Assembly: GCA_951406725.2 (NCBI GenBank) | Contig: OX597831.1 | Coordinates: 37,882,001-37,946,000 of the forward strand | DNA length: 64,000 nucleotides | Reading direction: 5' to 3' | Source of the DNA: Octopus vulgaris | Lineage: Eukaryota | In this document: one piece after another, positions 6,374 through 49,312 of the stretch | Layout of the letters: each line of letters starts with the position of its first letter | Position numbering within the stretch: position 1 is the first letter of the stretch | The notes under the pieces: model-generated | Told to the model about the DNA's origin: nothing | The model's database searches: none | What the model saw: only the letters and a program-made list of their open reading frames with translations | Program-made: the position numbers and the translations under genes

Positions 6374-6612
6374 TACATTATTTACATTCGACGGTAATTT
6401 GACATCATCTTGTTTGTTGTCAATAAGGATAACAATAATATCGAAAAATACTTTAGGAATGAGAACCCAGGTTCGAAATTTCCCCAAGACACCTGATGAA
6501 GGCTGGAGGGTAGATCAGCTGAAAAGTTGTGTTAACAACAAACAAGAAAAGGACAAATATCCGTGAAATGTAAATAATGTACGTAATTCCTCATCTCTTA
6601 AACATAGAACTC
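6374..6612 (+). mobile_element. Penelope-like (PLE) terminal fragment with inverted arms
   Basis: Imperfect inverted repeat 6374-6425 / 6530-6581 enclosing a hammerhead motif. Confidence 0.65.
6488..6533 (+). ncRNA. Minimal type-I hammerhead ribozyme motif
   Basis: Stem I GACAC/GTGTT, core CTGATGA, stem II GGCTG..CAGCT, then GAAA and AGTT (the palindromic stem III appears mutated from ACGT). Confidence 0.7.
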
Positions 6613-9497: not shown

Positions 9498-10100
9498 TAA
9501 GGCGGGGAGCTGGCAGAATCGTTTACACGCCGGGCGAAATGCCTTGCGGTATTTCGTCTGCCATTACCTGCTGAGTTCAAATTCTGCCGAGGTCGACTTA
9601 GACTTTCATCTTTTCAGGGTCGATTAAATAAGTACCAGTTGCGCACTGGGGTCGATATAATCGACTTAATCCGTTTGTCAGTCCTTGTTTGTCCTCTCTG
9701 TGTTTAGCCCCTTGTGGGTAGTCAAGAAATAGGTATTTCGTCTGCCGCTAATATTCTGAGTTCATATTCCGCTGAGGTCAACTTTGCCTTTCATCCTTTC
9801 GGGGTCGATAAATTAAGTACTAGTTACGCACTGCGGTCGATGTAATCGACTTAATCTGTTTGTCTGTCCTTGTTTGTACCCTTTGTGTCTAGCCCCTTCT
9901 GGGTTCTAAAAAAATAGGTATTTTGTCTGCCGCTACGTTCTGAGTTCAAATTCCGCTGAGGTCGACTTTGCCTTTCTTCCTTTCGGGGTCGATTAAATAA
10001 GTACCAGTTACGCACTGGGGTCGATATAATCGATTTAATCCATTTGTCTTTCCTTGTTTATCCTCTCTATGTTTAGCCCCTTGTGGGCAATAAAGAAATA
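9498..10100 (+). mobile_element. Tandem array (3 units) of SINE-like family D
   Basis: Repeated ~195-bp unit GGTATTTCGTCTGCCG..GAGTTCAAATTCCGCCGAGGTCGACTTTGCCTTTCATCCTTTCGGGGTCGATAAA..AAGTACCAG..TTTAGCCCCTTGTGGG..AAAGAAATA. Confidence 0.85.
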
Positions 10101-10287
10101 AATATAATATTACTTTCAAAGACCTGACTTATAATTCAGATTGTATAGTACATACAGGGTCAGTGTCGGTCCAGGCTTACCATGCATGTCACAAGCGTTT
10201 GAAAGCAGGATAAAAAATTTTTCAAAGACCCCTGAGTGTAGTCCATGTATGCAAGTATGCAAGTCACCCGTCACTAAGCTACCGATG

Positions 10288-10505
10288 TATACTCTTTTAC
10301 TATTTTACTTGTTTCAGTCATTTTGACTGCGGCCATGCTGGAAACGGCCTTTTGTCGAGCAAATTGACCCCATGACTTATTCTTTGTAAGCCAAGTATAT
10401 ATATATCGGTCTCTTTTGCGATGTTGGGGTACACACACACACAAACATATACACAAACACACATACACACATACATACATACATACATACATACATACAT
10501 ACATA

Positions 10506-10538
<33 letters not shown>

Positions 10539-10550
10539 TATATATATGTA

Positions 10551-10603
<53 letters not shown>

Positions 10604-10737
10604 GACGAGCTTCTTTCAGTTTCTTTTGGCCCGGGGCTATAGTAGAAGACACATTCCCAAGGTGCCACGCAGTGGACTGAACCCGGAAACATGTGGTTGG
10701 TAAGCAAGCTACATACCACACAGTCACTCCTGCGCCA
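10288..10737 (-). mobile_element. SINE family A, full length
   Basis: Head to tail similarity to 13757-14205. Confidence 0.85.
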
Positions 10738-11206
10738 ATATTGAAGGAAACTTTCACCGTTTTGTGTCGATACATCATGGCCTGACACCAATCGCGTAGC
10801 ATTAAAGAATGACGAAACAAACTCCGACTGCCTAATCGTTGACCCAACTTGTTAACACAGATGGTTCCCATTTTATTGACCCCGTAAAGTAGAAAGGTAA
10901 TGTATACTTTACTGGCAGTTGAAATCAGAACAAAGAGAACCGGAATAATCGATTTAATCCATTTGTCTTTCCTTGTTTATCCTCTCTATGTTTAGCCCCT
11001 TGTGGGCAATAAAGAAATAAATATAATATTACTTTCAAAGACCTGACTTATAATTCAGATTGTATAGTACATACAGGGTCAGTGTCGGTCCAGGCTTACC
11101 ATGCATGTCACAAGCGTTTGAAAGCAGGATAAAAATTTTTCAAAGACCCCTGAGTGTAGTCCATGTATGCAAGTATGCAAGTCACCCGTCACTAAGCTAC
11201 CGATGT

Positions 11207-11424
11207 ATACTCTTTTACTATTTTACTTGTTTCAGTCATTTTGACTGCGGCCATGCTGGAAACGGCCTTTTGTCGAGCAAATTGACCCCATGACTTATTC
11301 TTTGTAAGCCAAGTACATATAATATCGGTCTCTTTTGCGATGTTGGGGTACACACACACACAAACATATACACAAACACACATACACACATACATACATA
11401 CATACATACATACATACATACATA

Positions 11425-11520
<96 letters not shown>

Positions 11521-11655
11521 GACGAGCTTCTTTCAGTTTCTTTGGCCCGGGGCTATAGTAGAGGACACATTGCCAAGGTGCCGCGCAGTGGGACTGAACC
11601 CGGAAACATGTGGTTGGTAAGCAAGCTACATACCACACAGTCACTCCTGCGCCAA
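11207..11655 (-). mobile_element. SINE family A, full length (duplicate unit)
   Basis: Duplicate of 10288-10737. Confidence 0.85.
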
Positions 11656-12545
11656 TATTGAAGGAAACTTTCACCGTTTTGTGTCGATACATCATGGCCT
11701 GACACCAATCGCGTAGCATTAAAGAATGACGAAACAAACTCCGACTGCCTAATCGTTGACCCAACTTGTTAACACAGATGGTTCCCATTTTATTGACCCC
11801 GTAAAGTAGAAAGGTAATGTATACTTTACTGGCAGTTGAAATCAGAACAAAGAGAACCGGAATAATATCAGCGGGAATTACATCCAACTTGCTACCGACA
11901 ATACCAATTGCTCACGTGTATTATGCCTGAACTGCTACATAAATAGTTGGATAGAATAAGAGCACGGATGAAGAAATAAGAAGAAAGCAATAGAAAGACA
12001 GGAAGGAAGAAACTAAGAGAGAGGTGCACCACTAGAAAAATATTCAGTTCTTTAGATTTGTTTTCAGTTTAGAAAACCATTGAAACAGTAAGAAAGAATA
12101 CAAGTCGAAATGAGAAAAAAATAAAATGGCAAAAATCTCTTGTCTTCATGGAATTTTGTATAGAATGCTTAAAATAAAGAACACTCTAGCGAGAACAGAT
12201 ATGTCTGCTTCTCAATGATTTATTTAAGTGAGATAGTTCTACAGACTGTTGTGTGTACCTGGTATGGCAGCCATTTGTTAAATTTCCTCCATGTTTCAAT
12301 AAAAAAAGGAACTCTCCACTATTTGAAGGATGTATTTGTCGGTAAAAAGATGCCAGAAGGGAAATAAGAGAACAACGAACGTTTTAAATTGATGTTTGAA
12401 GGAAGACAGTGAAATGTATAGAAACTTTTTTTCCAACTTTTTTTTCTCTCTGGATATTTGTTTTTCTTTTTTTTTCAAAGAAATAATTGCATATAGGTGA
12501 ATAGTTATGTAGATAAGCTAATGAATAGCTACTAAAAAAACACAA

Positions 12546-24563: not shown

Positions 24564-24613
<50 letters not shown>

Positions 24614-24622
<9 letters not shown>

Positions 24623-25482
24623 AAAGGGCTTAGTAAAATAAATTACTTTGCCGCATACTGAACTCATTACCCCCAAACTTTCGTGAGTTGAACTGACCAA
24701 ACACTATATGAGAGAGATTTTCTTTAAGTATTAGAAATGGTTTTTAAAAAAGTTTTTTAGCTGCTATTTCTAATGAGTTCAGTATGCGGCAAAGTAATTT
24801 ATTTTACTAAGCCCTTTTATATATTGTAATAATTTGAATTCGCCTTAAATGGTCCCTTTGCATACTGAACACTTGGTGAAATTAATTAATAATTAATTAA
24901 TTTTACCCTCAATTGTTGAAATTATAATTAATCTCCCTCTAATTAATGCTTCGGATTTTACCGAAATAAGCAGAGTGTTTGTTGATTTTAACCCACGCTG
25001 GTGGAAAGGGGAGAGCAGAAATTCTTCGCTTGCATGTTTGAGTTTGTTGGCACTGTTAGTTACGAGCAGATCTTCGAAAGCGATGAGAGGCCGAAAGAGT
25101 ATGCTCTCACTTTCAGTGTTTTCAAATCCAAACCAAGGAGTTTCTGAGCTGATGATAGAAGTGTCGTGATGACTAATCTTGAAACGTACGTTCTCAAATA
25201 ACCTTTGCATTTGATTTTTTGATGTCTTTACCCCCAAACTTTCGTGAGTTGAACTGACCAAACACTATATGAGAGAGATTTTCTTTAAGTATTAGAAATG
25301 GTTTTTAAAAAAGTTTTTTTAGCTGCTATTTCTAATGAGTTCAGTATGCGGCAAAGTAATTTATTTTACTAAGCCCTTTTATATATTGTAATAATTTGAA
25401 TTCGCCTTAAATGGTCCCTTTGCATACTGAACACTTGGTGAAATTAATTAATAATTAATTAATTTTACCCTCAATTGTTGAA

Positions 25483-25484
<2 letters not shown>
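24614..25484 (+). mobile_element. Non-autonomous PLE/retrozyme-like element, ~560-bp unit in partial tandem with a short inverted arm
   Basis: Direct repeat 24668-24922 / 25229-25484, inverted arm 24614-24669, HHR at 25145 and (TA)n on both sides. Homolog at 38362-39293. Confidence 0.75.
25145..25196 (+). ncRNA. Minimal type-I hammerhead ribozyme motif
   Basis: Stem I TGAG/CTCA, core CTGATGA, imperfect stem II (AGA..GTC/GAC..TCT), GAAA, palindromic ACGTACGT; predicted cleavage after 25192. Confidence 0.75.
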
Positions 25485-25513
<29 letters not shown>

Positions 25514-25526
25514 CATATATGTATAC

Positions 25527-25570
<44 letters not shown>

Positions 25571-25572
25571 TA

Positions 25573-25637
<65 letters not shown>

Positions 25638-25669
25638 CGTATATATACATACGTATATATATGTGTGTA

Positions 25670-38286: not shown

Positions 38287-38361
<75 letters not shown>

Positions 38362-38365
<4 letters not shown>

Positions 38366-39293
38366 CAACAATTGAGGCTAAAATTAATTAATTATTAATC
38401 AATTTCACCAAGTATTCAGTATGTAAAGGGACCATTTAAGGCGAATTCAAATTATTACATTATATAAAAGGGCTTAGTAAAATAAATTACTTTGCCACAT
38501 ACTGAACTCATTAGAAATAGCAGCTAAAAAAATTTTTTTAAAACTATTTCTAATACTTAAAGAAAATCTCTCTCATATAGTGTTTGCTCAAGTCAACTCA
38601 CGATGGTATGGGGGTAAAGACATTAAAAATCACAAATGCAAAGGTTATTTGAGAAATGTTTTTAGCTGCTATTTCTAATGAGTTCAGTATGTGGCAAAGT
38701 AATTTATTTTACTAAGCCCTTTTATATAATGTAATAATTTGAATTCGCCTTAAATGGTCCCTTTACATACTGAATACTTGGTGAAATTGATTAATAATTA
38801 ATTAATTTTACCCTCAATTGTTGAAATTATAATTCATTTCTCTCTATTTAATGCTTCGGTTTTTACCGATAAAACATAGTGTTTACCAATTTTAACCCAC
38901 GCTGGTGGAAAGGGGAGAGCAGAAATTCTTCGCTTGCATATTTTGAATTTGCTAGCACTGATAGTTCGAGCAGATCTTCAGAAGTGATAAGAAGCCAAAA
39001 GGGTATGCTCCCACTTTCAGTGTTCCCAAATCCGAATCAAGGAGTTCTGAGCTGACGAAAGAAATGTCGATTTGACTAATCTAGAAACGTACGTTCTCAA
39101 ATAACCTTTGCATTTGTGATTTTTAATGTCTTTACCCCCATACCATCGTGAGTTGACTTGAGCAAACACTATATGAGAGAGATTTTCTTTAAGTATTAGA
39201 AATAGTTTAAAAAAAAATTTTAGCTGCTATTTCTAATGAGTTCAGTATGTGGCAAAGTAATTTATTTTACTAAGCCCTTTTATATAATGTAAT
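38362..39293 (+). mobile_element. Second copy of the ~560-bp PLE/retrozyme-like element with a long inverted arm
   Basis: Inverted arm 38362-38655, forward part 38659-39293 with terminal direct repeat 38661-38735 / 39219-39293, HHR at 39048, and (TA)n on both sides. Confidence 0.75.
39048..39099 (+). ncRNA. Minimal type-I hammerhead ribozyme motif
   Basis: TGAG-CTGACGA-stem II-GAAA-CGTACG-TT-CTCA; differs from the 25145 copy at the free N7 position and in stem II. Confidence 0.75.
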
Positions 39294-39371
<78 letters not shown>

Positions 39372-39374
39372 ATA

Positions 39375-40308
39375 ATCAATAATAATAAAGGGTACAATTA
39401 CTTAATTGATAGATAATTATTAATTTTTAATTATTAACTAGCAGTATAGCCCAGCGTTGCCCGGATTATAAACCGCTTTTGTCGTGTGCATCAAAAAACC
39501 TTTTGCATTCGTTTGTTCAGTTTGGTGACTTTTGACTTTTTCGTTGTTGTCACTCACATTGCTGCCAGCTTTTTTGCCATTTTTGTACATTTTTATACAT
39601 TTTGGGATACTTACCCCACGTGTTCCGAGAGTTAAAAGGGTCGAGTTGCGACAAAATGTGTTGTACAAAATGTGTTGCATATAAAAACCTTAGATTCTCG
39701 AACCATGTCGAATTTATCGATTTTTTTTCAGAACTGGGGGAACTTTTCAAAATTTTCGCTGCGTTAGTTTTGAATTATGACATTGGGCTACGTGCGTGTC
39801 AAGTTTCATCAGAATCGGTTGAAAGCCGTGGTCAGGGTGAGGGTACAACCTGAAAGACACACAGACAGACAAACTGCCGTTTATATATAGAGAGATAATT
39901 TTACCAAGTATTTTCGGCATGTTAAAAGAACCATTATCGGTAAACTGAAACATCATTTTTAAAAATAATTATGAGTATAATTATAATTAGGGTTCAGCAA
40001 AAAATTTGCTTCACAACATACCGAAAATTTAGAAATAGCAGCCAAACACCTAGCTATTTCCTCTACTGTAAGAGAATCTTCCAGATTATACACCAAAAAT
40101 ATTCACAACCCGTCGGACTTCCTAGATTATACCAAACACAGTGTCATCTAAGCAATGCGCGATTTGGATCCCAGATCTGGGAGATTCTCTTATGGTAGAG
40201 AAATAGCTACGGTTTTGGCTGCTATTTCTAATTTGTCGGTATGTGGTGAAGCATATTTTTTGCTGAAACCTAATTATAATTATAGTCATAATTATAAAAA
40301 AATTGTTA
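39375..40308. mobile_element. Related PLE-like fold-back element interrupted by a Helitron
   Basis: Inverted arms 39965-40086 / 40175-40295. Shares GCTGCTATTTCTAAT..GTATGTGG and the terminal AT-rich block with the 560-bp family; 40109-40160 is inverted relative to 37898-37952. Confidence 0.6.
39438..39895 (-). mobile_element. Non-autonomous Helitron
   Basis: Minus strand begins TC(TCTCTATATATAAA), ends with the GC-rich hairpin CCGGGCAACGCTGGG and terminal CTAG, and sits between A and T with no target-site duplication. Confidence 0.8.
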
Positions 40309-48881: not shown

Positions 48882-49312
48882 ATATTGACAGGGCTGGCCT
48901 GCTAGGTAGCCGGCCAGAATGCTAGAAGAAGATCATCAACGGCGGTTTGCATCTCGAGGACCGAATGTACTGATGAAGTCACGGACACTTGAATTATGCA
49001 AGTAATTCTTTTGTTAAGACCGAAACCGAGGTATGCATTTAAGTCTGTTATTTATTTAATTTTTCATATGTCCTGCCCGCCAAAGTTGGTTCTGGTGTTC
49101 GCTGAATTCTTCCTCTAGAGAATTTCCCTTGTAGTTTGATCGTTGATGATCTTCTTCTAGCATTCTGGCCGGCTACCTAGCAGGCCAGCCCTGCCAATAT
49201 ACACATATATTTGAATTTTCTCTGACTCCTCAGATTTTTTGAATGCTGGACTACTGGTTTTAAATTGATATTAAAATTAATATTAATTTATCTCCCTCAA
49301 TTTTTAAATATT

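Follow-up and report, generated by a model that had tools for sequence, protein, structure and literature searches.

A hammerhead-bearing, non-coding mini-retroelement of Octopus vulgaris with two fixed outer ends, likely copied in trans by a PLE enzyme

The window analyzed here is a stretch of 64,000 nucleotides of the Octopus vulgaris genome (contig OX597831.1, positions 37,882,001 to 37,946,000, forward strand). It holds two copies of a repeat with a unit of about 560 bases, and both copies have the same layout of a (TA)n tract, an inverted arm, a forward arm and a second (TA)n tract (Table 1). A sequence-only reading had described copy 1 as about 1.45 units with a period of ~561, copy 2 as about 1.13 units with a period of ~558, and an inverted segment 5' of each. 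All of this was borne out, and the arm lengths could be refined to the values in Table 1. The period of copy 1 is seen in the 98.9% identity between 24664-24926 and 25225-25489, and that of copy 2 in the 98.7% identity between 38660-38738 and 39218-39296, and the two copies are 89% identical to each other. The monomer is numbered after copy 1, unit positions 1-561 being window positions 24924-25484. Two positions on the unit, sites A and B, recur as outer ends of the arms and are defined below. In copy 1 the outer end of the inverted arm is at site B, where its first bases blend into the (TA)n, and at the junction the inverted and forward arms overlap by 6 nt. The forward arm of copy 1 reads through site B (25385-25397) within a conserved terminal module whose 3' boundary is at site A (25484-25487). 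In copy 2 the inner end of the inverted arm is 2 nt or less from the predicted ribozyme cut. The third relative is clipped: its inverted arm (39895-40082) reaches beyond B towards A and stops where another repeat starts, and its forward arm (40179-40280) ends in the B region and is too short to span the hammerhead. Elsewhere in the window there is a tandem duplication of ~920 bp (10026-11866, 98.8% identity) around (ACAT)n tracts, either recent or an assembly artefact, and at 9548-10100 a 184-bp unit is present three times in tandem as part of a dispersed repeat that occurs again at about 35670, 36270, 41500, 47250 and 63510.

Table 1. Positions in the window of the two copies, their flanks and related features
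Feature	Position	Strand	Remarks
Left (TA)n target flank, copy 1	24568..24622	.	
Copy 1 inverted arm	24612..24669	-	58 nt, unit positions 467 to 410
Copy 1 forward arm	24664..25487	+	1.47 units of 561-nt monomer; outer end at site A
Type I hammerhead motif, copy 1	25143..25198	+	sequence, covariation, profile match
Conserved terminal module	25316..25484	+	~170 nt, common to all related families
Right (TA)n target flank, copy 1	25483..25662	.	
Left (TA)n target flank, copy 2	38333..38363	.	
Copy 2 inverted arm	38359..38655	-	297 nt; outer end at site A
Copy 2 forward arm	38656..39296	+	~1.14 units of 558-nt subfamily; outer end at site B
Type I hammerhead motif, copy 2	39046..39101	+	sequence, profile match
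Right (TA)n target flank, copy 2	39294..39374	.	
Older two-armed relative (third member, same module)	39895..40280	.	600 bp from copy 2

The 560-base unit is without a conserved reading frame. The only frame of at least 100 aa in the copies, one of 123 aa on the minus strand (24893-25264), has no Pfam match above the cut-off, in agreement with the earlier statement that no ORF is recognizable, and the longest frames in eight diverged monomers are 50-123 aa. The predicted fold of the monomer, on the other hand, is much more stable than that of shuffled sequences (z = -6.8). When the genome was searched with the monomer, 1,819 candidates were found, and the best copies among the 40 that were scored are 96-99% identical. 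The genome contains 5,676 exact matches to a 28-30-nt pattern of the shared module and 0 to the reversed control, far more than chance would give, the matches being passes of the unit across several families and not insertions. The repeat is young, abundant and non-coding. The lengths of 83 monomers are 491-565 nt. Related families, 52-90% identical to the unit and with periods of ~530-565 nt, are all cyclic and non-coding, and their hammerhead sequences differ, yet they have the same 170-nt terminal module and the same A and B ends. Single-sequence folds of the module from two distant families agree on a hairpin, a closed domain with site B, a second hairpin and site A, and compensatory changes are visible in the module alignment. 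RNAalifold did not recover the proposed fold from this alignment (8 pairs, none compensatory), in which 3 of the 12 rows are visibly out of register. One locus of a 545-nt subfamily (L152, G000:C1:33099436-33105567) is a nearly homogeneous single-armed array of 9.8 units, and before it lies another partial arm that begins at the identical point.

Each copy had been said to carry one hammerhead, and a profile built from variants indeed matches just these two places in the window. In copy 1 the motif has the core CUGAUGA (25149-25155), GAAA (25181-25184), a short, palindromic helix III and a U-U mismatch at the helix II base, and the cut is predicted after U25192 (unit 269/270); in copy 2 the core is CUGACGA and the predicted cut follows U39095. 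Because no hammerhead family was matched in Rfam with either the gathering or the E-value thresholds, the motif was tested by comparison. The core is kept in 16 variants from related families, all six pairs of helix I show compensatory change across these variants, and the 3-8 pair switches from C-G (10 variants) to U-A (3 variants). Pairing was found in 91% of the cells compared to 27-40% when the partners were slid, a control that ignores the relatedness of the variants. Like the minimal PLE hammerheads described in the available part of PMC4209133, in which a palindromic helix III is thought to let the ribozymes act as dimers (Cervera and de la Pena 2014), the motif has a palindromic helix III, the U3-A8 core variant and an irregular helix II base. 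Unlike them, it keeps G10.1-C11.1 only in a minority of the families and has a conserved 3x3 internal loop in helix II. Since most families have a mismatch at the helix II base, self-cleavage at the predicted cut may be weak. Another hammerhead-like string is present at window 6488-6535 (+). Two degraded Poseidon-type loci (L243 and L252) have a string like it ~1.2 kb downstream of their RT motif, and the string is therefore probably the 3' end mark of that Poseidon-type family. A further string at 48965 (+) passes a simple core and helix I filter and may be due to chance.

For the mapping of ends a set of 99 de-duplicated insertions with at least 82% identity to the unit was used. About one third of them were taken in position order (the first 45 Mb of C1) and the rest are top hits of copies 1 and 2, which favors long arms; arms below 82% identity to the reference unit, arms cut by a locus edge and the duplicate locus L155 were left out of the counts. 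The outer ends of 163 of the 167 arms are at one of two sites, site A at unit 560 to 11 across the origin and site B at 461-474, which are ~94 nt apart and are both AU-rich stretches following a hairpin. Two-armed, head-to-head insertions make up 68 of the 99, and 65 of these 68 combine an A end with a B end, in either orientation. The remaining three have A and an off-site end (441, 445 and 508), and neither A+A nor B+B was found. The end at 508, which lies between B and A and is without a TA flank, could be that of a clipped A+A insertion. In the position-ordered subset 20 of 21 were A+B (one is the duplicate locus that was later dropped). A single arm is present in 31 insertions, with its end at A in 18 of them, at B in 12 and elsewhere in one. 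The flanks are TA-rich on both sides in 86 of the 99 insertions, and the inner ends are scattered around the unit. The ends had earlier been taken to be circularly permuted. The end points of the two window copies do differ, and this is because the forward arm ends at A in copy 1 (B-left/A-right) and at B in copy 2 (A-left/B-right), but free permutation did not survive the mapping of starts and ends on the cyclic unit, where two outer sites are fixed and the inner junctions alone vary. Random permutation of the ends is thus ruled out by the outer-end count.

The same mapping bears on whether the repeat was amplified at the DNA level, by satellite expansion or in the manner of a MITE whose ends are inverted. 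There are indeed inverted termini and tandem arrays, and one pair of loci (L154/L155) is a plain duplication. However, each of the two termini has its own position on one sequence and they are not fixed terminal inverted repeats, the inner ends vary as RT stops do, the copies are dispersed in (TA)n and the ribozyme motif covaries on one strand. Amplification at the DNA level is largely refuted by the mapped ends of the 99 insertions, and we give it hardly any credence.

The predicted ribozyme cut does not define where arms stop. Arms pass over it 184 times, and the number that stop within 5 nt of it, 4 of the 167 arms, among them the inverted arm of copy 2, is not in excess of the 3.1 expected. 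Arms of at least one unit number 98 of 167, a proportion inflated by the top-hit sampling, and 20 of 167 have at least two units, with a maximum of 9.8; neither window copy is among these 20. In 56 insertions the sequences diverge by 0.35% within arms and by 0.45% between the two arms of one insertion, which means that both arms were copied from one template or from two that are almost identical. The median divergence to other insertions is 1-14%, and the nearest other insertion is often as close as the sister arm. The relation of the two arms was examined in 63 of the 68 two-armed insertions, those with exactly two arms, ends at 441-476 being taken as B. The inner ends are within 3 nt of each other in 9 of the 63 compared to 0.94 expected, and in all nine the A arm is the longer one. 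In the position-ordered set both arms stop 25 nt or less from the same template point in 8 of 17 insertions (1.6 expected) and the arm lengths are correlated (rho 0.72), and among the 46 top-hit insertions there was no excess of coincident inner ends at the same-register level (3 compared to 2.2 expected).

Coincident inner ends and a longer A arm agree with the possibility that only one arm is RNA-templated and the second is a snap-back DNA copy of it ending at the other AU-rich site, and palindromic junctions are taken as a sign of self-priming in the available part of PMC3846280. What makes this improbable is that 13 of the 63 insertions, including copy 2 in the window, are incompatible with folding back in either direction, and that single-armed insertions start at A as well as at B, from which it follows that both are primary sites. 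Folding back may contribute to part of the cases with coincident inner ends. The simplest reading is that two RTs worked on one RNA in many of the insertions and on separate RNAs or units in others.

What form this RNA had was approached by comparing alleles in 40 insertions with sufficient overlap. The 9.8-unit arm is nearly homogeneous with almost no substitutions between its units, and in three insertions a rare allele is repeated in successive units of one arm. These observations fit a circle and also a homogeneous source array. In three others (C7 12.73 Mb, C27 13.37 Mb and C1 30.58 Mb) a rare allele is present in one unit per arm and absent from the other units, and at C13 44.61 Mb the insertion switches between haplotypes that are found elsewhere. 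Distinguishable units in both arms point to multi-unit templates in those few insertions, a pattern that post-insertion conversion between inverted arms could mimic. It could be argued that every insertion was copied from a ribozyme-cut and ligated monomeric circle. The read-through of the cut site, the homogeneous long arm and the successive rare alleles agree with this, as does the stable predicted fold, and circles have been shown for coral, mussel and axolotl retrozymes in the part of PMC7229834 available. The three mixed-allele insertions and the switch at C13, however, go beyond what a single monomer can supply, barring conversion after insertion, and everything else is also explained by internal initiation on uncut RNA (PMC11167929). 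We therefore hold it unlikely that all of the insertions arose from such circles. Uncut or multimeric RNA probably contributes as template, and a contribution of monomer circles is plausible, with the chances slightly against it.

The genome also contains a young, active-looking coding PLE. Its unit of 4,723 nt has a 781-aa frame (RT, CxxC linker and GIY-YIG), a pLTR and a hammerhead-like motif near the 3' end, there are 801 matches to its terminus and many copies are ~99% alike. The frame is open in 10 of 10 loci that were chosen for that frame length. Going by the CxxC linker as described in the available part of PMC8557442, it would be of the Neptune/Nematis type; a homolog search with the protein returned no clade labels. 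Its insertions are in (TA)n, and all nine complete two-armed insertions among 60 loci have one short end and one tail end, 40 nt apart. There is no detectable common sequence between this PLE and the unit, and because its 40-nt tail is of unrelated sequence it is only a candidate partner. In its loci (L061-L070 and L191-L240) a long AC-rich frame is found upstream of the 781-aa frame, and its single-armed insertions, unlike those of the mini-element (18 A, 12 B), mostly end at the short site.

An autonomous PLE with the same terminus as the unit had been suggested as something to look for, and none turned up in the 90 PLE-type loci sampled: no coding element with the module or the hammerhead was found in 40 GIY-YIG/PLE loci or in 20 Hydra-type and 30 Poseidon-type loci, the last two kinds being degraded. 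In all, 150 of 6,136 GIY-YIG candidates were scored, and the three strong matches look like independent insertions of the mini-element. By eye, the module resembles neither the Naiad_Obim nor the Hydra-1_Obim consensus sequence of octopus at the 3' end, and a motif search in parts of the supplement of PMC8557442 gave no shared module. These searches concern the view that the unit is a pLTR or terminal repeat that became detached from a coding PLE yet to be discovered, its copies being truncated by-products and not a self-propagating lineage. The ends are fixed, as this view has it, Xenopus retrozymes are homologous to PLE pLTRs (10.64898/2026.07.22.740005), and only a small part of the thousands of matches was inspected. 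Yet a coding extension is absent from every mapped insertion: the arms go round the unit and not into coding DNA, and in 70 plus 30 loci no RT was detected within the arms when the PLE protein was used as tblastn query. Moreover, there are several families, down to 52% identity, and all of them are cyclic and non-coding. We consider it quite improbable that the copies are such by-products, and an ancestral pLTR origin of the unit is possible.

We are fairly confident that both loci are insertions of a mini-retroelement that carries a hammerhead motif and belongs to the non-LTR retrozymes, with copying in trans by a PLE RT-endonuclease, primed at A and B, as the likely route. The sequence-only reading had likewise proposed a non-autonomous element copied by a PLE enzyme, from a circular or concatemeric RNA, and this proposal is supported in part, by the lack of coding capacity, the hammerhead, the PLE-type insertion and the arms that run across unit junctions for up to 9.8 units. 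The class of the enzyme is inferred from the insertion footprint, which is in common with the coding PLE, and the two end sites correspond to the PLE tail. A PLE protein with a predicted dimeric form has been shown to cut AT-rich DNA on both strands and to extend each of them, and with the PAc protein initiation is internal at two sites bounding the tail and ribozyme cleavage is dispensable (Frangieh et al. 2024, PMC11167929). A probable course of events here is that the PLE RT-endonuclease would cut a (TA)n tract, and that the two DNA ends would be primed on an RNA longer than one unit, one of them at its site A and the second at its site B. The conserved 170-nt module would be the RNA element bound by the PLE protein, and a protein dimer may hold both sites. 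Both cDNAs would then be extended in the upstream direction, on a concatemer left uncut or on a circle closed by ligation, until they stop, and would be joined head-to-head with a few bases of overlap. With internal priming the template would not need a free 3' end and the ribozyme cut would not define the ends, and ends that lie away from the ribozyme site are explained with no circle required (PMC11167929). Much more tentatively, it may be that PLE integration is an obligate two-ended reaction in which an asymmetric RT-endonuclease dimer primes both sides of a single (TA)n break, each at a different RNA site, and that an old radiation of ribozyme replicons of 530-565 nt exploits it by means of a structured docking module of its own, without sequence homology to any coding PLE, and of partly circular RNA.

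PLEs have been proposed as the mobilizers of retrozymes (Cervera and de la Pena 2020, PMC7229834, available part), and Xenopus retrozymes have been linked to PLEs by pLTR homology (Li, Clavereau and Pollet 2026, 10.64898/2026.07.22.740005). The present element resembles the non-LTR retrozymes of these two papers, the first in the part available, in its non-coding tandem repeats, each unit with a single type I hammerhead, the lack of an LTR, the low GC content, the self-paired predicted fold and the co-occurrence of PLEs. Its unit of ~560 nt compares with 170-400 nt in the available part of PMC7229834 and is inside the 51-972 bp range of the later paper. Dispersed two-armed insertions with fixed A and B ends in (TA)n, to which most copies here belong, are not described for retrozymes in the later paper or in the accessible part of PMC7229834. 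Circles and cleavage were demonstrated in those studies, whereas for the octopus element cleavage is predicted and circles are a possibility, and the link to PLEs is the insertion footprint here, with no homologous pLTR found, and pLTR homology in Xenopus. With EN+ PLEs, as far as the portions of PMC8557442 and PMC3846280 available and PMC11167929 go, it shares partial tandems, an inverted 5'-truncated copy, a tail at just one of the two ends, targets that are AT-rich or (TA)n, a hammerhead upstream of the ends and insertion without a need for cleavage. It differs from them in the lack of an ORF and in a tail of ~94 nt compared to 30-40 nt. The PLE tail is optional, or often present at just one end (Craig et al. 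2021, PMC8557442, available part), whereas two-armed insertions here nearly always have one site per end; in vitro the two strands of the PLE reaction showed no difference in start site (PMC11167929), unlike the per-end pairing here. Non-autonomous Chlamys PLEs such as MRC1 are similar in being non-autonomous and pLTR-forming with multicopy head-to-tail insertions, but, going by the part of PMC8557442 available, they generally resemble an autonomous family at the 3' end, while no homologous partner was found here, and most Chlamys elements are without canonical hammerheads, while a hammerhead motif is present here.

The class of element is already known, and to it this family adds a counted rule of one site per end, a tail of 94 nt and a conserved module for which no homologous partner was found. 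In the literature searched, which did not extend to subscription papers and key supplements, there is no report of this family or of a strict rule of this kind. Two open questions are touched by this, namely which enzyme spreads animal retrozymes and how the PLE tail and inverted ends originate. Here a retrozyme family bears the full PLE footprint, and what was an optional tail becomes a rule that can be counted, in 65 of 68 insertions of the mini-element with no like-with-like pair and in 9 of 9 of the coding PLE. The in vitro assay that exists for PLEs can thereby be supplied with an RNA module of 170 nt, with two start sites that have been mapped and with a candidate protein from a young element. 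As regards sequencing runs, contigs from four of them, whose RNA origin is a guess, cover most of the unit, and strand, ends and circles cannot be read from contigs. Five further runs (X16-X20), labelled as five other organisms, contain 22-43% of the sampled words of the unit, which may reflect either related species or admixture.
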